A stretch of 64,000 nt of DNA from a bacterium (GCA_028716385.1 JAQUPX010000004.1:130234-194233); one strand, 5' to 3'; shown: positions 16,147-52,233, numbered from the stretch's first letter. The notes: generated from the letters alone by a model not told the origin. Numbers and translations: made by a program.

Positions 16147-16312
16147 GAGACAGAGAATATAAAGCAGTTAAAAGTGAGAAACGAATAGTATATCAGATTA
16201 CAGATGAAATGGATTCCCGCTTTCGCGGGAATGACAAACGAGGGAAAGAAAATCATACTAAAGGCGGAGGAGGTTTAATAAGGTTGAAAAATCAGGTGGG
16301 TAGGGGAGGGGT

Positions 16313-22467: not shown

Positions 22468-24138
22468 TTATTTAAGGAGAAGAAGCAGTATGGAACTTAC
22501 TACAAGAGTTGCGATGGTAATTGGTGCGCAGACTTTTAAGTAATTAAAAAATGTAATTTTATATCCTCGTTTTTCCGCTAATCCTGCGGTTACGATATTT
22601 GCGGAAGCTCCGACTAATGTTCCATTTCCGCCCAAACAAGCGCCAAGCGCAAGCGCCCACCATAAAGTATTTCCTGCGCCGGGAATTGTGTGTGTCAGAT
22701 ATCCAACTACCGGTAGCATTGTTGCGGTAAATGGGATATTATCCACGATACTTGAAGCAATTGCGGACACCCAGATAATCAATAAGATAGCAGTAGTTAT
22801 ATTTCCACCGGACATCTTGCTTACCGAATTTGCAATCATTTGTATTAGACCTGTGCTTTCTGCGGCTCCGACCACAATAAACAACATCATAAAGAAGACA
22901 AGTGTAGGCCATTCGACTTCTTTCTCAAGGATATCGACGATATTTACCTTGCTTATCAAAAGCAAAAGGGAAGCTCCGACTAAAGCCGCAATGCTAACTT
23001 CCATATGTAAAAATCCGTGAGTTATAAACATAAGAATCACAATTCCTAAGACGATTAAGCTTTTCTTGAGTAGCTGACTATCCGTTATCTTGTATTCTTC
23101 TTTTAGTTTTTTCAAAAGTTCGTCAACGTTATCTATTTTTGCTTTTGCGTATTCTTTACCAAAATAAAACTTCATCATAAATATTAATACAAACATACAG
23201 ACTATTACTATTGGAGCAAGGTGGACTACAAACTGATTAAATGTAAGTCCCGCATAAGAGCCTATCATAATGTTTGGCGGGTCGCCGATTATTGTTGCTG
23301 TCCCACCGATGTTTGAAGCAAGAATCTCAGGGAGGAGGAAGCTAAAAGGATTAATACCAAGAACCACTGCAATTTCAATGGTAACCGGGGCGATAAGAAG
23401 CATAGTAGTTACATTGTCTAAAAAAGCGGATGCGATTGCCGTTATGACAGTAAGAAGAACTACTAAAATCCAGATATTTCCTTTTGCAAGCCGGTAAGAT
23501 TTATAGGCAAGCCACTGGAAGACACCCGTGATTTTCATTATGCCGACAATAATCATCATCCCGAAGAGGAGAAAGACGACATTAAGGTCAATAAATTTCA
23601 TCGCATCTTCAAAGGAAATTATGAAGTATCCCTTATTGAATGAGCCAAAAGTGTATGTGATTAAAAGTATAAGAGCTGCTCCGAGAGAGGCAGCAAGGGT
23701 TCTGTGGCATAAATCAAACCCGATAAGTATGTAAACGAGTAGTAATATAATAACGGATATATAGAAAGCAGGTCCTAAAATATGGTCAATTGTAATATTG
23801 GAGAATAAAGAATAAGTTCCTTCTTTATAGGCTAGTTGAGACTTTTCTATTTCTAATTTATTATTACGATAAGTAGGTTTAGAAGTTTTAATTTCAATAT
23901 TATTAAGGGATTGTAAACTATCAATTTGAATAATAAAACTCCCATCAGAAGAGGTTTTTTCGGTTTTATAATATTTGCCGTCAATTGAAACATCCAATTC
24001 TGCATCGGAAATGAGTTTATTGTAGGAGTCAATTACTTTGCCTGAGATGTTTAGTTTGTTTAAGCTGTCTTGTCCCGTTACTGCAAAGGAATTGTAAGCA
24101 AATAAGAAGAGGCTAAGGAATAATATCTTTTTCAGCAT
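22468..24138 (-). CDS. fusion protein: signal peptide + carboxypeptidase-regulatory-like beta-sandwich domain + ArsB/NhaD (ion transporter superfamily) permease, copy 1
   Basis: The N-terminus (ISGKVIDSYNKLISDAELDVSIDGKYYKTEKTSSDGSF) is CarboxypepD_reg-like. The remainder is a 10-12-TM ArsB/NhaD-type permease (…GNTLWWALALGACLGGNGTLVGASANIV…). Confidence 0.7.
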   Translation of the reverse strand: MLKKILFLSLFLFAYNSFAVTGQDSLNKLNISGKVIDSYNKLISDAELDVSIDGKYYKTEKTSSDGSFIIQIDSLQSLNNIEIKTSKPTYRNNKLEIEKSQLAYKEGTYSLFSNITIDHILGPAFYISVIILLLVYILIGFDLCHRTLAASLGAALILLITYTFGSFNKGYFIISFEDAMKFIDLNVVFLLFGMMIIVGIMKITGVFQWLAYKSYRLAKGNIWILVVLLTVITAIASAFLDNVTTMLLIAPVTIEIAVVLGINPFSFLLPEILASNIGGTATIIGDPPNIMIGSYAGLTFNQFVVHLAPIVIVCMFVLIFMMKFYFGKEYAKAKIDNVDELLKKLKEEYKITDSQLLKKSLIVLGIVILMFITHGFLHMEVSIAALVGASLLLLISKVNIVDILEKEVEWPTLVFFMMLFIVVGAAESTGLIQMIANSVSKMSGGNITTAILLIIWVSAIASSIVDNIPFTATMLPVVGYLTHTIPGAGNTLWWALALGACLGGNGTLVGASANIVTAGLAEKRGYKITFFNYLKVCAPITIATLVVSSILLLLLK

Positions 24139-24554
24139 AATTTTTTATTTGTTTGGACGTATATAGAGAAGTTAATTTATAATACGAAAAAGTCAAGCGC
24201 TTATTGAAAAGCGGGGGATTTTAATATTGTAAGGAGATAATTTTTGGACGCACCCTCCAAACAGATCGGCGGGCAGGGATAAACGCAGATTAACAGGATA
24301 AAACAAAATAGAAGATTATAGATAAAAAAAATACCAAATAAAAAGGTAAGTGAAGAACCCTATCTAAAGACGGGGCTTCCAAAAATAACAAAAACAGTGG
24401 ATTCCCGCTTTCGCGGGAATGACAAATGGGAGACGGATAGGCAAAAAAGCTTTCACCCCTATCTAAAGGCGGGGTATTCAGCCAAAAGACACTTAATAAG
24501 TATGGATTTTCGCAGAAAAAGAGAAACAGAAAATTGCCAGGGTAAAGAGAATGT

Positions 24555-26225
24555 TTATTTAAGGAGGAGCAGTAATATGGAGCTTACTACAAGAGTAGCG
24601 AGGGTAATCGGGGCACAAACTTTCAAGTAATTAAAGAATGTAATTTTGTAACCTCGTTTTTCTGCTAATCCGGCGGTTACGATATTTGCCGAAGCACCGA
24701 CTAATGTTCCATTCCCGCCCAAACAAGCGCCAAGTGAAAGCGCCCACCATAAAGTGTTTCCTGCACCGGGAATGGTATGTGTGAGATATGCCACTATTGG
24801 CAGCATTGTTGCGGTAAATGGAATATTATCTATTATACTTGAAGCAATACCTGAGACCCATATAATTAGCAAGATAGCGATAGTCAGGTTTCCACCCGAT
24901 AATTTGCTTACGGAATTGGCAATCATTTGTATTAGTCCTGTGCTTTCTGCGGCTCCGACCACAATAAACAACATCATAAAGAATATAAGCGTAGGCCATT
25001 CGACTTCTTTTTCCAGCACTTCAACAATATTTACTTTGCTTATCATAAGAAGTAGTGATGCTCCGACTAAAGCCGCAATGCTCACTTCCATATGCAAGAA
25101 CCCGTGAGTTATAAACATAAGGATCACAATTCCTAAAACGATTAAACTTTTCTTGAGTAACTGACTATCGGTTATTTTGTATTCTTCTTTTAGCTTTTTC
25201 AGAAGCGCATCAACGTTTTCTATTTTTGCTTTTGCATACTCTTTGCCAAAATAAAACTTTATCAGAACCAACAATACGACCATACAAACTATTATTATTG
25301 GTGTAAGGTGTACGACAAACTGGTTAAAAGTAAGTCCCGCATAAGAGCCTATCATAATGTTTGGTGGGTCGCCGATGAGAGTTGCAGTCCCGCCCATATT
25401 GGAAGCCATAATCTCGGGAAGAAGGAAACTGAAGGGATTGATTCCAAGTATCATTGTAATTTCAAGAGTAACCGGGGCAATGAGAAGCATAGTCGTTACA
25501 TTATCCAAAAAAGCCGATACTATTGCCGTAATAACGCTAAGAAGAATTACCAAAGTTAGGATGTTCCCTTTTGCAAGCTGGTAAGACTTGTAGGCAAGCC
25601 ACTGGAATACACCCGTGATTTTCATTATGCCGACAATAATCATCATCCCGAAAAGAAGGAAAATGACGTTAAGGTCAATAGCTTTCATAGCATCTTCAAA
25701 GGAAATAACGAAGTATCCTTGATTGAATGAGCCAAAAGTGTATGTTACGAGAAGTACAAGAGCTGCTCCAAGAGAGGCAGCAAGCGTTCTGTGACATAAA
25801 TCAAACCCGATGAGTATATAAACGAGTAGTAATATAATAACGGATATATAGAAAGCAGGTCCTAAAATATGGTCAATTGTGATATCTGAGAAAAAAGAAT
25901 AAGTTCCTTCTTTATAAGCTAGTTGAGACTTTTCTATTTCTAATTTATTATTACGATAAGTAGGTTTAGAAGTTTTAATTTCAATATTATTAAGGGATTG
26001 TAAACTATCAATTTGAATAATAAAACTCCCATCAGAAGAGGTTTTTTCGGTTTTATAATATTTGCCGTCAATTGAAACATCCAATTCTGCATCGGAGATG
26101 AGTTTATTGTAGGAGTCAATTACTTTGCCTGAAATGTTTAGTTTATTTAAGCTGTCTTGTCCCGTTACTGCAAAGGAATTGTAAGCAAATAAGAAGAGGC
26201 TAAGGAAAAATATCTTTTTTAACAT
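24555..26225 (-). CDS. fusion protein: carboxypeptidase-regulatory-like domain + ArsB/NhaD permease, copy 2 (tandem paralogue)
   Basis: It is 556 aa, the same length as copy 1, and collinear with it, with roughly 90% aa identity by eye. Confidence 0.7.
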   Translation of the reverse strand: MLKKIFFLSLFLFAYNSFAVTGQDSLNKLNISGKVIDSYNKLISDAELDVSIDGKYYKTEKTSSDGSFIIQIDSLQSLNNIEIKTSKPTYRNNKLEIEKSQLAYKEGTYSFFSDITIDHILGPAFYISVIILLLVYILIGFDLCHRTLAASLGAALVLLVTYTFGSFNQGYFVISFEDAMKAIDLNVIFLLFGMMIIVGIMKITGVFQWLAYKSYQLAKGNILTLVILLSVITAIVSAFLDNVTTMLLIAPVTLEITMILGINPFSFLLPEIMASNMGGTATLIGDPPNIMIGSYAGLTFNQFVVHLTPIIIVCMVVLLVLIKFYFGKEYAKAKIENVDALLKKLKEEYKITDSQLLKKSLIVLGIVILMFITHGFLHMEVSIAALVGASLLLMISKVNIVEVLEKEVEWPTLIFFMMLFIVVGAAESTGLIQMIANSVSKLSGGNLTIAILLIIWVSGIASSIIDNIPFTATMLPIVAYLTHTIPGAGNTLWWALSLGACLGGNGTLVGASANIVTAGLAEKRGYKITFFNYLKVCAPITLATLVVSSILLLLLK

Positions 26226-26352
26226 AATTTATTAATACGGAGAATTTAATTTATAATATAAAAAAGTCAACTATAAGTTATAAGTTAGTAAGTTTTGATA
26301 ACTTTTCATTTTAACTTGACTTATACAAATATTTGGTGTTAAGTATCCTAAA

Positions 26353-27309
26353 ATGCTTATAAATTTCTTTAGTATATTTTTAAAATACTTTATTGATATT
26401 TTGCCTTCGTTGATACTCGGGTTCACCTTAAGCGGGATAATTCATGAATTTGTTCCCCAGAATTTAATCAACAAGCATCTTACCGGAAAGGGAATTAAGC
26501 CGATTTTACTTACTACTCTTATAGGTATGATATTACCGTTATGTTGTTTTGGTGCTTTGCCCGTGGCATTAAGTTTTAGAAAAAAGGGAGTTCCTTTAGG
26601 CCCGATACTTGCGTTTATTGTCGCTACCCCGGCAACCTCATTGACGGCTATTCTTGTTACGTGGAGACTGCTTGGCCCGTTAGTTACTTTGTATCTTTGT
26701 CTGGCGGTTATATTAATGGGGTTAGTAATTGGTATAATAGGGAACAGCCTGCCATTTAAGCCGGTGGAAGCAGTAACGGAAGGTTGTCCTATGTGTAATG
26801 AATGTTCGGACGTGGAAAAACATCAACATCATAAAAAAGGGATAAAAAGTCGTATTATTTCTATAATTACTTTTGGGTTTGTAGACGTTCTGAAAGATTT
26901 ATGGCGTGAGTTACTACTAGGTATAATTTTAGCTGCAGCCGTTGCATCCATAACGCCATTAGGGGACATCGTAAAACAGTATCTTACGGGGTGGCAGGCT
27001 TATGTGTATGCTTTAATTTTTGGATTACTTATTTATGTTTGTTCTACGGCGAGTGTTCCTCTAGTTCATGCATTAATTTCCAAAGGGTTAAGCGTTGGCG
27101 CAGGGTTGGTAATTCTTTTAGCGGGTCCCGTTACTTCTTACGGAACGATATTAGTTCTGAAAAAAGAATTCGGATGGAGAGTATTGATAATTTATTTGTT
27201 AGTTATTTCCGTATTTTCATTGCTGTTAGGATATGTATTTAGTTTGATTGCACCGCCTGACTTCTGCTCAAAACTGCCCGCTGTGTTTAATGGACAAGAA
27301 TGCCATTGA
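26353..27309 (+). CDS. DUF318/UPF0718-family permease with Cys/His-rich central loop
   Basis: Two 4-TM halves are separated by the loop EGCPMCNECSDVEKHQHHKKG. Confidence 0.55.
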   Translation: MLINFFSIFLKYFIDILPSLILGFTLSGIIHEFVPQNLINKHLTGKGIKPILLTTLIGMILPLCCFGALPVALSFRKKGVPLGPILAFIVATPATSLTAILVTWRLLGPLVTLYLCLAVILMGLVIGIIGNSLPFKPVEAVTEGCPMCNECSDVEKHQHHKKGIKSRIISIITFGFVDVLKDLWRELLLGIILAAAVASITPLGDIVKQYLTGWQAYVYALIFGLLIYVCSTASVPLVHALISKGLSVGAGLVILLAGPVTSYGTILVLKKEFGWRVLIIYLLVISVFSLLLGYVFSLIAPPDFCSKLPAVFNGQECH

Positions 27310-28798: not shown

Positions 28799-31700
28799 CT
28801 ATTGCATAATCACAAATTTTCTGGTAGCGGTAAATTCACCGGCTTTTAGTTTATAGAAATAAACCCCCGAAGGCAATTTCTTCCTTTCCAGTTTCACTTT
28901 TTTATAACCCGGAGTTTCATATTTATTTACTAAGGTATTTACTTTTTGTCCTAATAAGTTGTAAACATTCAATTCGACCAATGAAGCTTCCGGAAGTGAA
29001 TATTTAATTTCCGTTTCTAGTTTAAATGGGTTGGGTTCATTAGAGAACAGTTCATATTTTCGTGGGAGTATCATTCCCGTATCTTCAACCCCAGGAGAAA
29101 GGAGCCATTCTACAATTCTGTGCATAAGTTCATTTCTTGTTGATGCCAAATCTATTGCTTCAAAGCCAAATGGCAGAGTAACTGTTTTCCAGAGTGCAGA
29201 ATTATAATTAAACGCAACTCCTGCATATCCTTCCCCTGTATAATCTTTATATTTGAAAATAGAATCTTTTACCCCGGGTCCACCAGTTTTAAGCGCTGAT
29301 TGCATAAACTGATTATTGGCCCCGGTTCCGCCTTCTATTGCAAAGGTAAGCCCATTGCTTATGTATTTTCCGTTTATTCCGATTACTGTATCTATATTAA
29401 TTCCGGTAATTACTTTATTGATTCCCAGTCTTGAAAAAATACCAACGTCAGATATTCCCTGACTGGACAAAAATAATTTTCCTTTATGAGGATAAAGATA
29501 AAGGTTTATATTGTTTTGTTCTTCCGTTGAAAAAGCAGTTGAATTGTAATATTCCGGTTCCCATAAAACACTATCGCAGGTTGTTCCTGTAAGCCAGATA
29601 ACAATAGAATATTGATTTAAGATGGAAGTATCGGGAGAGCCGTAACAAAATACATCCCACACATCGTAAGTATAGCTGTTAGCATCAAGCGCTTCGGTAT
29701 AGTATTTTTCATAAGGTTTTGTATTCCCTAATGGCGGTCTATTATAGTTATCATCATCTACGACAAGAATAGTAGCCGTTTTTGCAAATGTTTTTGTAGT
29801 AAATTCCATTAGATTGACGTATTGTTTTTTATTCCCGAGTTTATCTTTTGCCGTAAGGTTTACATTGTAAAACTTTTCCTGAGCAGTCGGTGTTATCCAT
29901 GAATTACCATAAATGTTATCTCCTGCCAGGATATCAGCATGTGTCCCATCATCGTAGAAATTAATGTTTGTTATGGTTGTTCCTATTGGGCTTTCAATAT
30001 TAACGACAACAGAATCCACTCCGGAGCCATCTATAAGTGTAGCTCTTAAAATAACCATAGAGCCTGCCGACAGTAAAGGTGAAATTACCGTTGGAGAATG
30101 CAAAAACGGACCTTTATCATCCGTAATTTCGAGGTCAATAGTATCTTTCCATTCTCCGACAGTTGAGTCGCGGAGTGTAAGAATTAGCGGGACGGTAGTG
30201 TCATACGCATCTTCAAAAATTTTTATTTTATAATTCTGAACGATTGTTTGTCCCGTATCAAGGGTGCCTAAGATATGTGTTGTATCCAATATTTTTATAT
30301 AAGATGGTGCAGTTAGTGTTCCCAATATACCATATATAGGGCAGATTCCTTTATTTTTAATCGTAATTTCTATATTTACCGAGTCGTTTGGCGATAGGAT
30401 AGTATCTGAACCTTGAATTTGCCAGTTATCTATCACAAGTGGGCCCATAGTAGTGAAGGTTGAGCCATTATTTATTAAAGTTGTATCTCCCAAATTATCT
30501 TTCGCAAAAACATCTATAAAATAATGTTTTCCACTTGAAGAAGTTTTCCATATATTCCCGTAAGTATGGTCATTAGACGAACCGTCATTATGTAATCCAT
30601 CGTCATAAAGTTGTATATTTGTGCATAAGCTTTCATCAGGAGATTCTATATCCGCACTAATTGTTTGTATTCCATCTTTATCATAACTATATGCGAGTAT
30701 CGTTACCGAATCTCCCGGGTTTACGACGGGTGGAATTGCTTTAATCCCATTAACAATAGGGCATTGAGGGAGGTATCCGTTATTGAATTGTGTTATTGCA
30801 TTTTGTGCATTTTTTTTCAAATCAGTTAAATTATCTGCACACACGACAGCAATTGTAAAATCTACTTCTTCGCCCGGTTGTAATAGAGTATAAGGTCCGG
30901 AAGAAGATAATTGTCTTACATCACGGGGGGTATCAATTGAGCAAAACGTTGTTTGTTTTAATTTTTCGTATTTTAATGAGTCTTGTCCGTCTCTATCCAC
31001 AAGGGAATCTGTTAGTGTCCACGATGAGAATCCGGTAAATCCAATATTCCCCGGGGTCTCACATAATATGCATCCTATATATCCGGCGGTAGTTTTCCAA
31101 TCTTTCTCATAGCCATCGGAATCAAAAGAATAACCAAGGTTTAATGTTTTATCATACCCTATTAAGTCATCATTACATCCCCCGCCGATAGTATCATATC
31201 CTATGTCATTATCCATAAAATATCCGAAATATACATTTTTCAGGGGGAACGAATTCATATTTTTAATTTTATAATTGATATAAATATAGTTTTTATTTTC
31301 CGGCATATTAAACGAGTAAGTTCTTTGTTCCACTCTTATACCGAGTCCCATACTGCCATAAGGCCCTATATCGTTAACCCATATAACCATTGCATCTTCT
31401 GCCGGAATCCAGTCTCCGGAAACGGCGTAAGTATCTTCATTTGAAATAATATCTCCTTTTGCGGGGTCAAGTTGCATGTCCATAGGTCGGCGCGAGTTTA
31501 TAGTTGTATCTGCAAAACACCATAATGCCTGATAGGCTTCTTTGGACATACCGGGTTGTTTAAAAACAAGATTCCCCTCGTGTGTATACCCGTGAGGTAA
31601 TAATTGACTGCTGAACGTTAATCCTTTGACTCCAATATCTCCTGCTTCGCCGGCATTTTGAAGTTCAGGAATGGACATTGCGCCAATATCAGATTGATAA

Positions 31701-32149
31701 GCACCTCTACTTAAATTTGGTGTCCATACTGTGTCTCCGCTTGAAGAGTCCACAACGGGATATAGGGCGCCAATCCAAGGGCCTGCTTCATAAACATAAT
31801 ATTGTTGGGAATCAGCAGGGTATTCACCTGTTTTTCCACGTGTTAGCGAATTATTATAATATACTGACATTCTTGTTTGCTGTTCATATGATGCATCGTA
31901 TTTACTTATAGAATCAGTTGGGGGGCGAGCAAATAAGCCACCCTGGAGTGTATTTGAAACAGTCCAGTCGCGTAGATTACCAACTCCCGTCCAGTATAAT
32001 ACCCACCAGTCTGCAGGTTTATCAGTAATTATGCCTTTGTTATGAATTGTTTTTTTATTTAATTCTAATTTGCTTGAGTTATAGCACCATCCGGTATTTA
32101 TGCAAAAATTAGAAATTAAAATTGCCAATAAAATTTTACCTTTTTTCAT
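28799..32149 (-). CDS. large secreted multidomain protein with T9SS (Por) C-terminal sorting domain
   Basis: It has a signal peptide, a GGGAGG Shine-Dalgarno upstream, and a C-terminal …NPFKLETEIKYSLPEASLVELNVYNLLGQKV…GVYFYKLKAG…ATRKFVIMQ segment that matches the Por_Secre_tail pattern. Confidence 0.6.
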   Translation of the reverse strand: MKKGKILLAILISNFCINTGWCYNSSKLELNKKTIHNKGIITDKPADWWVLYWTGVGNLRDWTVSNTLQGGLFARPPTDSISKYDASYEQQTRMSVYYNNSLTRGKTGEYPADSQQYYVYEAGPWIGALYPVVDSSSGDTVWTPNLSRGAYQSDIGAMSIPELQNAGEAGDIGVKGLTFSSQLLPHGYTHEGNLVFKQPGMSKEAYQALWCFADTTINSRRPMDMQLDPAKGDIISNEDTYAVSGDWIPAEDAMVIWVNDIGPYGSMGLGIRVEQRTYSFNMPENKNYIYINYKIKNMNSFPLKNVYFGYFMDNDIGYDTIGGGCNDDLIGYDKTLNLGYSFDSDGYEKDWKTTAGYIGCILCETPGNIGFTGFSSWTLTDSLVDRDGQDSLKYEKLKQTTFCSIDTPRDVRQLSSSGPYTLLQPGEEVDFTIAVVCADNLTDLKKNAQNAITQFNNGYLPQCPIVNGIKAIPPVVNPGDSVTILAYSYDKDGIQTISADIESPDESLCTNIQLYDDGLHNDGSSNDHTYGNIWKTSSSGKHYFIDVFAKDNLGDTTLINNGSTFTTMGPLVIDNWQIQGSDTILSPNDSVNIEITIKNKGICPIYGILGTLTAPSYIKILDTTHILGTLDTGQTIVQNYKIKIFEDAYDTTVPLILTLRDSTVGEWKDTIDLEITDDKGPFLHSPTVISPLLSAGSMVILRATLIDGSGVDSVVVNIESPIGTTITNINFYDDGTHADILAGDNIYGNSWITPTAQEKFYNVNLTAKDKLGNKKQYVNLMEFTTKTFAKTATILVVDDDNYNRPPLGNTKPYEKYYTEALDANSYTYDVWDVFCYGSPDTSILNQYSIVIWLTGTTCDSVLWEPEYYNSTAFSTEEQNNINLYLYPHKGKLFLSSQGISDVGIFSRLGINKVITGINIDTVIGINGKYISNGLTFAIEGGTGANNQFMQSALKTGGPGVKDSIFKYKDYTGEGYAGVAFNYNSALWKTVTLPFGFEAIDLASTRNELMHRIVEWLLSPGVEDTGMILPRKYELFSNEPNPFKLETEIKYSLPEASLVELNVYNLLGQKVNTLVNKYETPGYKKVKLERKKLPSGVYFYKLKAGEFTATRKFVIMQ

Positions 32150-35412: not shown

Positions 35413-36720
35413 ATGAAAGCATATATAGAAAAAATTGCGGATTATAAGGATAAAGAGGTAGAAATTAGTGGCTGGTTGTATAACAAACGTTCAAGCGGGA
35501 AAATACATTTTCTTGAAGTTCGTGACGGGACCGGATTTATACAGGTAGTTGTGGTAAAAGGACAGGTAGATGAAGGGGTGTTTGAACTTTGCGATAAAAT
35601 TTCACAGGAATCTTCAATTAAAGTTGTTGGTAATGTCAGGGAAGAACCTCGCGCGCCGGGAGGATACGAATTAGACTTGAAATCCATCCAGGTTATAGCG
35701 CAGGCAGAGGTTTACCCGTTACAGAAAAAAGAGCATGGCATTGATTTCCTTTTATCGAACAGGCATTTATGGCTCAGGTCAAAAGCGCCGTGGGCAATTA
35801 TCAGAATCAGAGACGAAGTAATTCGTAGTATTATAGATTTTTTTCACTCAAAAGACTTTATTAAATTAGATGCTCCTATTTTTACCCCTTCTGCCTGTGA
35901 AGGCACTACGACTCTTTTTGAGGTCCCTTATTTTGACCAGAAAGTTTATTTATCTCAATCTGGCCAGTTGTATGGGGAAGCAGGATGTATGGCATTTAAT
36001 AAGATATATACATTCGGACCTACTTTCCGTGCGGAAGCTTCCAAGACTCGTAGGCATCTTACCGAGTTCTGGCAAATAGAACCTGAAGTTGCTTATGCAA
36101 AGCTTGATGACATTATGGAGTTAGCAGAACAATTTGTGACTTATATAGTCCAGAGAGTCCTTGCAAATAGGCAGAAAGAACTTAAAATGTTAGAAAGAGA
36201 TGTTACTATACTTGAAAAAATAAAAGTGCCTTTTTATCGTATAAGCTACAGTGAGGCAATTGAAATGGTTAAAAAACAGTCTGTTTCAGGGGGGGAAGTC
36301 CCTATACTTCAATGGGGAGATGATTTTGGGGCTCCACAGGAAACATATATAGCTTCTCAATTTGATAAACCAGTTTTTGTGCATCGTTATCCTACAAAAT
36401 GTAAAGCATTTTATATGAAACCTGACCCTGAAAACCCTGATGTTGTGTTATGTACGGATTTGCTTGCTTCCGAAGGTTATGGAGAAATAATAGGTGGCTC
36501 GCAAAGAGAAGAAAATATACAAGCATTAGAGAAAAAAATAGAAAAAGAAGGCTTGCCCAAAGAAGCCCATGAATGGTATCTTGATTTAAGAAGATATGGT
36601 TCTGTCCCACATTCGGGATTTGGACTTGGTCTTGAAAGATTAGTAACTTGGATATGTGGATTACATCATATTCGTGAAACGATACCATTTCCAAGAACTA
36701 TAGATAGGGTGTCCCCATAA
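35413..36720 (+). CDS. asnS: asparagine--tRNA ligase (class IIb; could be an archaeal-type AspRS)
   Basis: It has an N-terminal OB anticodon-binding domain and the class II motifs FRAEASKTRRHLTEFWQIEPE and GGSQREE. Its length of 435 aa is typical of short AsnRS. Confidence 0.72.
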   Translation: MKAYIEKIADYKDKEVEISGWLYNKRSSGKIHFLEVRDGTGFIQVVVVKGQVDEGVFELCDKISQESSIKVVGNVREEPRAPGGYELDLKSIQVIAQAEVYPLQKKEHGIDFLLSNRHLWLRSKAPWAIIRIRDEVIRSIIDFFHSKDFIKLDAPIFTPSACEGTTTLFEVPYFDQKVYLSQSGQLYGEAGCMAFNKIYTFGPTFRAEASKTRRHLTEFWQIEPEVAYAKLDDIMELAEQFVTYIVQRVLANRQKELKMLERDVTILEKIKVPFYRISYSEAIEMVKKQSVSGGEVPILQWGDDFGAPQETYIASQFDKPVFVHRYPTKCKAFYMKPDPENPDVVLCTDLLASEGYGEIIGGSQREENIQALEKKIEKEGLPKEAHEWYLDLRRYGSVPHSGFGLGLERLVTWICGLHHIRETIPFPRTIDRVSP

Positions 36721-38494: not shown

Positions 38495-40429
38495 TTAGTT
38501 TTTATCGTTAACTTTGTTGAGTCCGAAATCTACGGTGCCGGTTAGGGTTGTCCCGTCTTTATTGTCTCCCGACAATGCGGGTATTTCCAGATAAGTTGTA
38601 TTTGGTGGGATAGTTGTTGACCATAATATAGGACTATTAGAAGAAGCGGAGATTTCTTTATTCTTATACCACTTATCCTTATAGTTTTTGAAATCGGCTG
38701 TTTTAATGAAGTATTTTCCGGCAGGGAGTCCCGTTAAAGTATGCCCTTCCGGGGTATATTCTGCGATTTGAACTATATGACCGGATAAATCATAAGCTAT
38801 AACTTTTCCGCCAAAGATTGGATTTTTTGTTTTTTCGTCGTAAACTTTAACAGAGACTTTTGATTTTCTTGGTGCTACACTGAAATTAAAATCAACAGGA
38901 GTTACGCCCGTTATTTTAATAAGTTCTGTTTTATTATCATTAAAGGTAGTTCCGCCTCCGAGCCATATAGCGGAGAATTCGGTTCCGGGCGCAAAAGCGC
39001 AGACTTTGTATTCTCCCACAGGAAGGCCCAATATTTTATAACCTCCGGTGAATGTATTTTTAGAAGAGAAGGTCTCGCCTGTTTTTGTATTAAAAGCTAT
39101 GATATAAAATCTTGTGCTATCCCCGGACAGCAGGTTAGCATTACAGAATACGAACCCCTGAATTATTCCGGCTGGTTCAAGTTTGAAATTAACATTTATA
39201 GTAATCGAACCTGATGTTACAGCGATTTTTTGGACATTTTCAGGTTTATATGTATTTTTATAATATTTACCATAATAAGCTTTATTTAGATAAGGCACAA
39301 AAGCGTTAATTTTTAAGATATATTCTCCCTGTGGGAGGTTATGAATTTCGTAATATCCATTAGAGCCGTGTGAAATTTCTGAGCCTTCAACTTTGTTCCA
39401 GCGGGTATCATAGATTTCAAAATCATAATTTTCCAAAGGAATATTATTTTTATCTTTCACCGTTCCCGAAATTATCCCTTCTTGTTTTAACTGAAAATCT
39501 ATATTTTTAACGGTATCTTCTTCTTTTACGGTTATGTATGTGGCAATTAGCGGGTTATTTGTATCTTTCCAATATTTCCACGCATATTGACTTACTTTAG
39601 GCAAGGGTTTTACTTTTACCATATAATTATCTGCGGGTAATCCTGAAATCACATAATTACCTGCAGAATCTACTTGTTTTTCAACGGATTTATTATTTCC
39701 GATTACCTGTATCCATGTTTGTGCGACCGGGGTAACTTTTCCGCAAATTGTGCCGCCTTTTTTAACTTCAAAATTTACTCCTTTTATGGTATCGAGGATA
39801 ATGTTAATCGTAATCAGGGTATCGCTATGGGATGTTCCTATCCAGCCTTCCGGTTCCATAAATACATGATATTTCCCGGGTTCTAATCCACTTACGGTGT
39901 ATTCGCCGATTGAATCTGTTTGGCTGACATAATCCACATAAGTATTTTTTGATTTGTATAGTTTCAGGAAGAACGGGTTATTTGGTATTGGGGTTTTCGA
40001 ATTTTTTTCTATAAGTTTTCCTTTTATTACTGCTCCTTTATCAAGCAGAAAATTAATTTCCGAGGTAACGCTGTTCTCTTTTACTATGACAACATTAGCA
40101 TCTTCCCAGTTATATACATTTTTATAATATTCTCCGACATATTTTCCGCCGGTTGCATATTCGCCGGAGTGGATTCGTAATATATACATTCCGGGAAGGA
40201 TATCAGAGATAGCGTATCCGCCTCTAATGTTTGTAGTAGCGCCATTTACCAGATATCCATATTTATCGTAAGCTATAACGGGGACGCCCGGTATCGAGTT
40301 TTTTGCGCCACTTTCATAGACCAGTCCTTCTATTTTTTTTATTGGCGAGGATAATTTCTGAACAACCGGTTCTTGTTTAGCGCATCCGGCTACCAGCAAA
40401 ACGCTTATAAGGAAAAGATAAGGTTTCAT
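38495..40429 (-). CDS. lipoprotein with tandem carboxypeptidase-regulatory-like (Cna-B/CarboxypepD_reg) beta-sandwich repeats
   Basis: It has a lipobox (LLVAGC) and at least five repeats of the G.V.D…G.P…A.V……T…G.Y.I..L..G.Y type. Confidence 0.55.
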   Translation of the reverse strand: MKPYLFLISVLLVAGCAKQEPVVQKLSSPIKKIEGLVYESGAKNSIPGVPVIAYDKYGYLVNGATTNIRGGYAISDILPGMYILRIHSGEYATGGKYVGEYYKNVYNWEDANVVIVKENSVTSEINFLLDKGAVIKGKLIEKNSKTPIPNNPFFLKLYKSKNTYVDYVSQTDSIGEYTVSGLEPGKYHVFMEPEGWIGTSHSDTLITINIILDTIKGVNFEVKKGGTICGKVTPVAQTWIQVIGNNKSVEKQVDSAGNYVISGLPADNYMVKVKPLPKVSQYAWKYWKDTNNPLIATYITVKEEDTVKNIDFQLKQEGIISGTVKDKNNIPLENYDFEIYDTRWNKVEGSEISHGSNGYYEIHNLPQGEYILKINAFVPYLNKAYYGKYYKNTYKPENVQKIAVTSGSITINVNFKLEPAGIIQGFVFCNANLLSGDSTRFYIIAFNTKTGETFSSKNTFTGGYKILGLPVGEYKVCAFAPGTEFSAIWLGGGTTFNDNKTELIKITGVTPVDFNFSVAPRKSKVSVKVYDEKTKNPIFGGKVIAYDLSGHIVQIAEYTPEGHTLTGLPAGKYFIKTADFKNYKDKWYKNKEISASSNSPILWSTTIPPNTTYLEIPALSGDNKDGTTLTGTVDFGLNKVNDKN

Positions 40430-52152: not shown

Positions 52153-52233
52153 ACAAACTGGCAAGCAGGATCTCAGAGAACGTCCCGCCAAAGCGGGATA
52201 AACTCCGAACAGAAAAAAGGACAAAGAATTTTT

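Follow-up and report, generated by a model that had tools for sequence, protein, structure and literature searches.

The 64,000-nucleotide (nt) stretch of bacterial DNA analysed here (GCA_028716385.1, JAQUPX010000004.1:130234-194233; hereafter the window) carries on its minus strand two open reading frames (ORFs) of 556 residues each, at 22468-24138 (copy A) and 24555-26225 (copy B), where an earlier reading of the sequence, the original prediction, had also placed two genes of that length. We consider it probable, at about 0.7 for this reading as a whole, that both are functional, independently transcribed tandem paralogues, and that they encode permeases resembling the OCA2/P protein with a beta-sandwich domain on the periplasmic side of the membrane. 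The copies are new members of a widespread, unstudied clade of OCA2-like permeases that carry a periplasmic transthyretin-like domain. No other proteins of bacteria or archaea stand nearer to OCA2 than this family. Their proteins align without indels at 92% amino acid identity and 97% positives, which agrees with the collinearity and mostly conservative substitutions first described.

An OCA2-like permease core

Along the entire model of the Pfam family CitMHS (PF03600; positions 1-336 of 336) the two proteins score 284.9 and 284.4 bits, the cutoff being 31.9, and they give weaker Pfam matches to ArsB (55 bits), Na_sulph_symp and DctM. The closest resemblance to a characterised protein is to OCA2. 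A human OCA2 sequence served as bait to retrieve the OCA2 entries P0271 (99% identical to the bait) and P0353 (mouse), and all later comparisons were made with retrieved database entries. Copy A aligns with P0271 over residues 127-554 at 36% identity (BLASTP, E = 4e-87, 276 bits), and profile-profile comparison of the core with OCA2 by hhalign gives a probability of 100%, E = 1.4e-88 and 41% identity. Against these 276 bits, characterised families in the Protein Data Bank (PDB) reach 66 bits (ArsB) and 35 bits or less (DASS). Judged by such scores the core is assigned to an OCA2/P-permease-like clade, its homology to OCA2 being stronger than that to the other characterised families.

The resemblance extends to residues of known importance. 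In OCA2, mutation of V443, M446, I473, N476 or N489 abolishes chloride conductance, and N442 and N741 lie at the hairpin tips (PMC10372470). Six of these seven residues (N442, V443, M446, N476, N489 and N741) are identical in both copies, as N242, V243, M246, N276, N289 and N467, and are invariant or nearly so across the family; at the position of I473, copy A has L and copy B has M. Neither protein attains the cutoff of any NCBIfam model. The best of these models, MamN (NF040989), covers residues 127-522 with 183.5 and 187.6 bits against a cutoff of 500, and identity with MamN was rejected on these scores and on the lack of magnetosome context in the window overview.

A full-length AlphaFold2 (AF2) model, built from a 30-sequence family alignment (predicted local distance difference test score (pLDDT) 84, predicted template modelling score (pTM) 0.78), has eight beta-strands within residues 27-116, a helix at 123-140 and an all-helical core thereafter. 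The best PDB match of this model in Foldseek is ArsB (10tp, a cryo-electron microscopy structure of 2026), with a target-normalised template modelling score (TMt) of 0.80, followed by the elevator dimers VcINDY, NaCT, NaS1 and Pho90 at 0.6-0.7. Superposition of the model on ArsB recovers the ion transporter (IT) superfamily's elevator fold, an inverted repeat in which five transmembrane segments (TMs) plus a hairpin occur twice, with a scaffold and a transport domain. The fold and family of the predicted 10-12-TM permease of ArsB/NhaD/CitMHS type are borne out by this comparison, while the count, by homology with ArsB, would be ten TMs plus two re-entrant hairpins.

A predicted periplasmic beta-sandwich ahead of the core

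An all-beta domain, residues 27-116, directly precedes the first TM at residue 123. Modelled in isolation it again forms eight strands, with a pLDDT of 95.5, and Foldseek aligns it at probability 1.0 and a query-normalised template modelling score (TMq) of 0.58-0.75 with transthyretin-like sandwiches, among them the regulatory domains of carboxypeptidases N and D, the N-terminal extension (NTE) of SusC, the transthyretin (TTR)-like domain of teneurin and the cores of intradiol dioxygenases. In the models the domain has the prealbumin-like beta-sandwich fold of seven or eight strands. The Pfam family CarboxypepD_reg (PF13620) stays below its gathering cutoff of 32.3, with 13.5 bits for the whole protein (residues 31-93) and 18.2 bits for the isolated domain, and matches 13 of 23 N-domains of the family at E <= 0.01, the best at 4e-7. 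Because the window proteins are sub-threshold, the fold call rests on structure prediction together with these better-scoring relatives. Of the Pfam families on which the original prediction had built its fusion, CitMHS thus lies far above its cutoff, whereas CarboxypepD_reg stays below it for both proteins; the proposal of a CarboxypepD_reg-like sandwich is nevertheless sustained by the model confidence, the structural matches and the relatives that carry PF13620. A mere long pre-sequence in its place was rejected on the full-length and isolated-domain models.

Ahead of the sandwich, the N terminus reads by eye as Sec-like, with MLKK, a hydrophobic core and SFA before a putative cleavage point followed by V. 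AF2 places a helix at 2-17 and a low-confidence linker at 17-25, and the feature recurs across the family alignment, in keeping with the cleavable signal peptide that had been proposed. In the solved structure of ArsB, which has ten TMs and two hairpins, both ends of the chain face the periplasm and the linker that joins the repeats is cytoplasmic (PMC13381914). Since the ArsB fold has a periplasmic N terminus and the copies carry a candidate signal peptide, the N-domain would lie in the periplasm without an extra TM, and the predicted arrangement of a periplasmic domain fused to an ArsB/NhaD/CitMHS-type permease finds its support in this topology.

The N-domain is the least conserved part of the protein across the family, at 14-36% identity against about 60% in the core. 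G33, G66 and K87 are invariant in the family alignment and Y109 is nearly so. As these conserved residues are structural only and the domain is fast-evolving, we speculate that it is not catalytic and, standing just ahead of the scaffold helix TM1, most plausibly serves as a structural, dimer-interface or envelope-contact module. A search of a library of 1.84 billion representatives with an N-domain profile retrieved 10,462 representative clusters. Giant surface-type proteins with many CarboxypepD_reg-like repeats make up most of the best-scoring 150 and, because they dominate these, the search confirms the superfamily and does not lend itself to counting fusions. One 629-residue family member (P0107) has several extra tandem copies of the first N-domain beta-hairpin segment (repeats of ...RVIDTQGEPVSEAKVNL..., alignment columns 90-200), and its precomputed Pfam matches are to Dioxygenase_C and CarboxypepD_reg alike.

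A widespread architecture

The original prediction regarded the fusion as unusual and possibly new, a view that the databases contradict. Of the 120 top clusters formed at 90% identity, some 115 have lengths of 550-630 residues and align with 93-100% of the query. Their sources are Hippea, Thermodesulfatator, many metagenome-assembled genomes (MAGs) and archaea (Altiarchaeota, Methanotrichaceae and Hydrothermarchaeaceae), and no name goes further than 'citrate transporter', 'SLC13 family permease' or 'ArsB/NhaD family transporter'. Signal peptide, sandwich and core all align in 30 diverse members. In about 27 loci of GTDB species representatives the match begins at residue ~4-31; Desulfobacterota/Thermodesulfobacteriota, Nitrospinota, Nitrospirae, Acidobacteriota and Gammaproteobacteria are among them. 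The next 50 loci match from residue ~121-145 only, as plain permeases. For the window the outcome is mainly deflationary, the fusion being an ordinary member of a large family already in the databases.

Evolution of the tandem pair

To call the two copies near-identical, as was done at first, overstates their likeness. Their DNA is 88.6% identical, with 191 differences, and Nei-Gojobori estimates for the whole genes are dS = 0.50, dN = 0.040 and omega = 0.08. Both copies are under strong purifying selection. The differences are unevenly spread, since 11 fall in nt 1-407 (2.7%) but the other 180 in nt 408-1671 (14.2%; twice the log-likelihood difference, 2dlnL = 52), and the longest identical run, 179 nt, compares with a maximum of 113 in 20,000 permutations. 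Between the 5' part and the remainder, dS rises from 0.12 to 0.63, while omega is 0.09 and 0.077, respectively.

Two related MAGs (L083 and L084) keep the synteny of ArsP_1, NamZ and DUF2007 genes beside the pair. The window copies were compared with those of L084 in a four-gene test, its downstream part covering nt 408-1077. In nt 1-407 the paralogues within the same genome are 97.3% and 97.1% identical, against 82-84.5% for all between-genome pairs; over nt 408-1077 it is the positional orthologues that resemble each other more, at 88.8% and 87.0% against 85.1% for the window paralogues. As downstream orthologues are closer than paralogues, the duplication predates the split from the related MAG, and the high identity within each genome relative to that between genomes implies that the 5' module and promoter were homogenised independently in each lineage. 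The conversion tract of L084 extends to about nt 666, and the conversion is 5'-biased and not strictly bounded by the domain. Between gene conversion and diversification, which the original prediction had left to a dN/dS comparison, conversion is limited to the promoter and the first ~400 nt, which encode the signal peptide, the sandwich and the beginning of TM1, within genes that purifying selection maintains overall. The pair provides a clean example of 5'-restricted concerted evolution, in which promoter, signal peptide and periplasmic domain are homogenised and the core diverges under purifying selection. The contigs of both MAGs also end inside the pair (L083 9001-10160, L084 7081-8159), the truncated genes being deposited as 'SLC13 family permease, partial'; a practical warning is that such tandem paralogues are systematically under-assembled in short-read MAGs.

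Other tandem or near-tandem fused pairs occur in L001, L004 and Thermodesulfatator autotrophicus (L082), and there the mosaic is reversed, with N-domains 83%, 57% and 48% identical and cores 98.8%, 82.5% and 91%, respectively. This is consistent with an N-domain that is normally a fast-evolving module; the periplasmic domain may change at a very high rate or be exchanged, or else homogenisation is acting on the cores. Because distant lineages show the opposite mosaic, the comparison suggests that domain and core evolve as separable modules.

Three other explanations of the pair have to be weighed. That it is an assembly artefact, two strain variants of one gene joined head to tail, could be entertained given that the source is apparently a MAG and that related assemblies break inside the pair. 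However, the independent assembly L084 also has the two copies, ordered alike, in the same synteny and with an intergenic sequence of its own, positional orthologues are closer than paralogues in the core, the core dS lies far above strain-level variation, and each copy has its own promoter, with terminator-like hairpins between them; an artefact is accordingly exceedingly improbable. Stronger constraint on the first ~400 nt, at the level of protein or mRNA, might replace gene conversion as the cause of their low divergence, and the similar omega of both parts speaks for it. Yet the deficit is in synonymous sites, the same region differs between genomes while staying at 97% within each, and it encodes the least conserved domain of the family, so that we give constraint very little credence. 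An obligate A:B heterodimer, whose 5' module stays identical through selection on a dimer contact made by the periplasmic domains and TM1, in place of neutral conversion anchored at the 5' end, is also unlikely, if to a lesser degree. It draws on the dimeric state of IT-superfamily relatives, on the OCA2 beta-sandwiches having been modelled as part of the dimer interface (PMC10372470), on the recurrence of tandem pairs (L001, L004, L082 and L084) and on the independence of 5' homogenisation in two lineages. Set against this, the N-domains are the more divergent part in the three distant pairs, the L084 tract passes the domain boundary, and both promoters are homogenised too, as expected of a tract anchored in conserved 5' sequence. 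We therefore retain gene conversion anchored at the 5' end as the preferred account.

Promoters and the intergenic gap

In the window the promoter-proximal block is present at exactly two places, where 0 are expected, and it is also kept upstream of both L084 copies. Its duplication had been recognised correctly, although the position given for the second copy, 26255, is 9 nt off (26246-26270). The duplication of the 3' flank described at the same time extends only ~30 nt beyond the stop codon; the remainder of the range given for it is coding or unalignable. Likewise, the 416-nt gap between the genes shares one hairpin repeat with the rest of the window and is not, as had been thought, filled throughout with window-wide repeat families. 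It contains two terminator-like hairpins on the coding strand, the shared hairpin repeat and an internal 18-nt direct repeat. The shared element, ATTCCCGCGAAAGCGGGAAT, recurs at 16210-16238 (29-nt exact match) and at 52183-52198 (one mismatch), and CCCCG(C/T)CTTTAGATAGGG is present twice within the gap (24139-24554). About 300 nt of the gap are missing from the homologous, 119-nt gap of L084, and the extra sequence, made up of hairpin elements, looks like an insertion of the repetitive extragenic palindrome (REP) or miniature inverted-repeat transposable element (MITE) kind, now the source of the terminator-like hairpins. An Rfam scan of leaders and gap for riboswitches or other known RNAs gave no match at E <= 1. 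Each copy appears to be its own transcription unit, because each has a promoter block and terminator-like hairpins lie between them.

Proposed function and its alternatives

We tentatively propose the following mode of action. The fold and the solved relatives (ArsB, VcINDY/SLC13) point to a dimeric elevator-type secondary transporter, in which the substrate site would be formed by the hairpin tips, D241-N242-V243 and D466-N467, and the broken-helix loops, GDPPN289 and GASAN514. Its substrate is most likely a small anion, which would be moved in an ion-coupled manner at an OCA2-type site. This job is favoured over arsenite efflux because the OCA2 site residues are conserved and the metalloid and proton residues of ArsB are lost. 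Metalloid binding and proton coupling in ArsB involve N111, D112, D148, N158, N337 and S380 (PMC13381914). Four of the six are replaced in the copies, both proposed proton-coupling aspartates among them, D112, D148, N158 and S380 corresponding in the HMMER alignment to V243, G279, D286 and A511.

The case for an ArsB-type arsenite/antimonite-proton antiporter is easily stated, since the nearest solved structure is ArsB, the Pfam ArsB model matches, the neighbouring gene falls in Pfam ArsP_1 and the databases use the name 'ArsB/NhaD family transporter'. It is nonetheless very improbable: besides the lost residues (PMC13381914), the NCBIfam ArsB models give 97.6 bits against 457 (PRK15445) and 91.3 against 415 (TIGR00935), the window overview holds no arsR, arsC or arsA, and the ArsP_1 neighbour is nearest to the SO_0444 Cu/Zn efflux family. 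With the cutoffs missed by a factor of more than 4 and four of six key residues replaced, orthology to ArsB was rejected. A different cation-coupled carrier deserves more thought, be it an NhaD/NhaB-like Na+/H+ antiporter, a CitMHS metal-citrate carrier, a DASS di-/tricarboxylate symporter or an Lsi2-like silicic-acid/H+ antiporter. In Pfam there are matches to CitMHS, Na_sulph_symp and DctM, and in NCBIfam weak ones to NhaB and DASS; the acidic residues before both hairpin-tip asparagines, together with GDPPN in the first loop (L1), could bind a cation; a dicarboxylate has been modelled for OCA2 (PMC10372470); and OCA2 and Lsi2 are members of one family (PMC13142308). The NCBIfam scores nevertheless fall well short of their cutoffs for citMHS (12 against 260 bits), DASS (TIGR00785; 107.6 and 104.8 against 198.6) and NhaB (34 against 640), the SNT motif of DASS was not found in the copies, and the site residues match those of OCA2. 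Such a carrier is a serious candidate that we judge unlikely.

In other lineages a universal stress protein (Usp) gene directly follows the permease on the same strand in 13 of 25 fused-family loci scanned, which suggests a conserved regulatory pair of permease and Usp; a literature search on operons of ArsB/NhaD permeases and Usp returned nothing relevant. Usp genes of single- or tandem-domain type stand, for example, at L081 8677-9120 and at L082 3301-4245 and 6437-7384.

Several points weigh against the view of the copies as functional OCA2-like permeases with a periplasmic sandwich. The signal peptide is assigned by reading the sequence, and its cleavage is a prediction. Positive-inside counting of loop charges was uninformative, which leaves the signal peptide and the solved structure of ArsB as the basis of the topology call. 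The function of the prokaryotic clade has been read from sequence and models, the substrate of OCA2 itself is disputed between chloride, on the evidence of conductance, and a modelled dicarboxylate (PMC10372470), and the genes around the pair in the window do not hint at a substrate. Finally, tblastn found no Usp gene in the window, its sole match (29.6 bits, inside another gene) being spurious, and regulation in the window lineage may therefore differ.

Features and genomic context

Table 1 Features of the tandem permease genes in the window
Feature	Coordinates	Strand	Basis and remarks
Copy A, OCA2/P-permease-like transporter, distal from the ArsP_1 neighbour	22468..24138	-	ORF; CitMHS 284.9 bits; AF2 pLDDT 84; 36% OCA2 identity
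Copy A, putative signal peptide, residues 1-19 (MLKKILFLSLFLFAYNSFA before the predicted cleavage point, V after it)	24082..24138	-	sequence reading; AF2 helix 2-17
Copy A, transthyretin/CarboxypepD_reg-like beta-sandwich (predicted), residues 27-116	23791..24060	-	eight strands, pLDDT 95.5; Foldseek
Copy A, permease core, residues 123-556	22468..23772	-	Foldseek against ArsB 10tp; hhalign against OCA2
Copy A, core motifs FLDNVTT (hairpin 1, HP1), GDPPN (L1), DNIPFTAT (HP2), GASAN (L2)			
Copy A arm, homogenised 5' module (promoter block and gene nt 1-407)	23732..24196	-	divergence; four-gene comparison
Copy A, promoter block, TTGACT-16 nt-TAACTT	24172..24196	-	exact two-copy motif
Copy B, paralogue proximal to the ArsP_1 neighbour	24555..26225	-	ORF; positional orthologue of L084 5291-6961
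Copy B, putative signal peptide, residues 1-19	26169..26225	-	one substitution relative to copy A, I6F
Copy B, beta-sandwich (predicted), residues 27-116	25878..26147	-	differs from copy A at L111F and N114D alone
Copy B, permease core, residues 123-556	24555..25859	-	Pfam; pairwise alignment; residue mapping
Copy B arm, homogenised 5' module	25819..26270	-	divergence; four-gene comparison
Copy B, promoter block, TTGACT-16 nt-TAAATT	26246..26270	-	exact two-copy motif; conserved in L084
Terminator-like hairpins downstream of copy B, 24471-24454 and 24420-24401	24401..24471	-	in ~300 nt of repeat-derived sequence

The divergent neighbour of the pair, 26353-27309 on the plus strand, encodes an ArsP_1-family permease. 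Its nearest NCBIfam model, that of the SO_0444 Cu/Zn efflux family, scores 215.6 bits where the cutoff is 300. An arsenic island was rejected on account of this SO_0444-like character. A vicinal Cys pair (LPLCCFG) occurs in the protein, whose central loop (CPMCNECSDVEKHQHH) is rich in Cys and His. Otherwise the window consists of housekeeping genes and of five genes, among 35 large ORFs scanned, with the Por_Secre_tail sorting domain of the type IX secretion system (T9SS), for example 28799-32149. The 644-residue product of 38495-40429, which the original prediction took for a lipoprotein, is more likely T9SS cargo, its type A sorting domain scoring 31 bits against a cutoff of 23. The plus-strand gene at 35413-36720 encodes an asparaginyl-tRNA synthetase whose nearest named relatives are in Candidatus Stahlbacteria and candidate division WOR-3 (67% identity), and on the strength of these relatives the window would belong to an uncultivated lineage of the WOR-3 group.

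Comparison with known systems

The copies display individual features of several transporter families. With the DASS/SLC13 proteins (VcINDY, NaCT, NaDC and NaS1) they share the dimeric elevator fold of the IT superfamily and a substrate site made of two hairpin tips and two broken helices; those proteins differ in their low identity (14-18%), in the SNT motif, which the copies lack, and in an extra N-terminal TM that leaves the N terminus in the cytoplasm. ArsB (PDB 10tp, PMC13381914) is closer in structure, having the same inverted repeat of ten TMs and two hairpins, periplasmic termini and a cytoplasmic linker, and its hairpin-tip residues N111 and N337 correspond to N242 and N467. However, it is only ~22% identical and has neither an N-terminal domain nor a signal peptide. 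MamN, a magnetosome membrane transporter, belongs by its leading NCBIfam score to the same sub-branch of the ArsB/NhaD group, but its model starts at the core and has no beta-sandwich, the copies lie far below its equivalog cutoff, and no magnetosome genes appear in the window overview. A likeness of another kind is seen in SusC-type TonB-dependent transporters, which also carry a periplasmic CarboxypepD_reg-like sandwich at the N terminus (NTE, PDB 9hfj, TMt 0.78). As SusC is an outer-membrane beta-barrel and the copies would be inner-membrane elevator carriers, this likeness is limited to the type of domain and its placement.

There remains the comparison with OCA2, the P protein (pink-eyed dilution) of human albinism, a melanosomal anion conductance. 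In the human protein a core of CitMHS type follows a luminal, eight-stranded beta-sandwich that has been described as GOLD-like, and OCA2 was claimed, from solved structures, to be the sole IT-superfamily member with an extracytoplasmic beta-sandwich (PMC10372470). The original prediction knew of no characterised transporter with such an N-terminal fusion, but OCA2 presents an extracytoplasmic sandwich directly before the same core (PMC10372470). In OCA2 and in the copies alike an eight-stranded sandwich on the luminal or periplasmic side stands just before the first core helix, and the motifs FLDNVTTMLL, IGDPPN, DNIPFTATM and GACLGGNGTL.GASAN are identical. OCA2 differs in its long disordered cytosolic N-tail, in an uncleaved TM anchor where the copies have a signal peptide, and in a cytoplasmic linker that is ~80 residues longer.

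Whether the two sandwiches are related is a separate matter. By hhalign no homology of the prokaryotic N-domain to the luminal GOLD-like domain was detected (probability 0.08%), and OCA2 shows no special affinity for fused over plain prokaryotic permeases, being ~35% identical to both (p = 0.09). Because its similarity to prokaryotic members is the same whether or not they have the N-domain, common ancestry of the sandwiches is unsupported, and the parallel would be one of a homologous core combined with an analogous, possibly convergent, extracytoplasmic sandwich. We think it unlikely that they are one ancestral module diverged past sequence recognition. If they were, the architecture of OCA2, an exported sandwich on a P-permease core, would be prokaryotic in origin; its sandwich would have a transport-related role, in the dimer interface or in gating, in place of the proposed eukaryote-specific one in traffic from endoplasmic reticulum to Golgi; and thermophilic members from Hippea or Thermodesulfatator would be direct models for the mechanism of OCA2. 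Whether the similarity is inherited or convergent, the claim for OCA2 alone fails once prokaryotic sequences are considered. The family to which the copies belong constitutes the prokaryotic counterpart of OCA2, cultured thermophiles included, and offers tractable material for structural work and transport assays.

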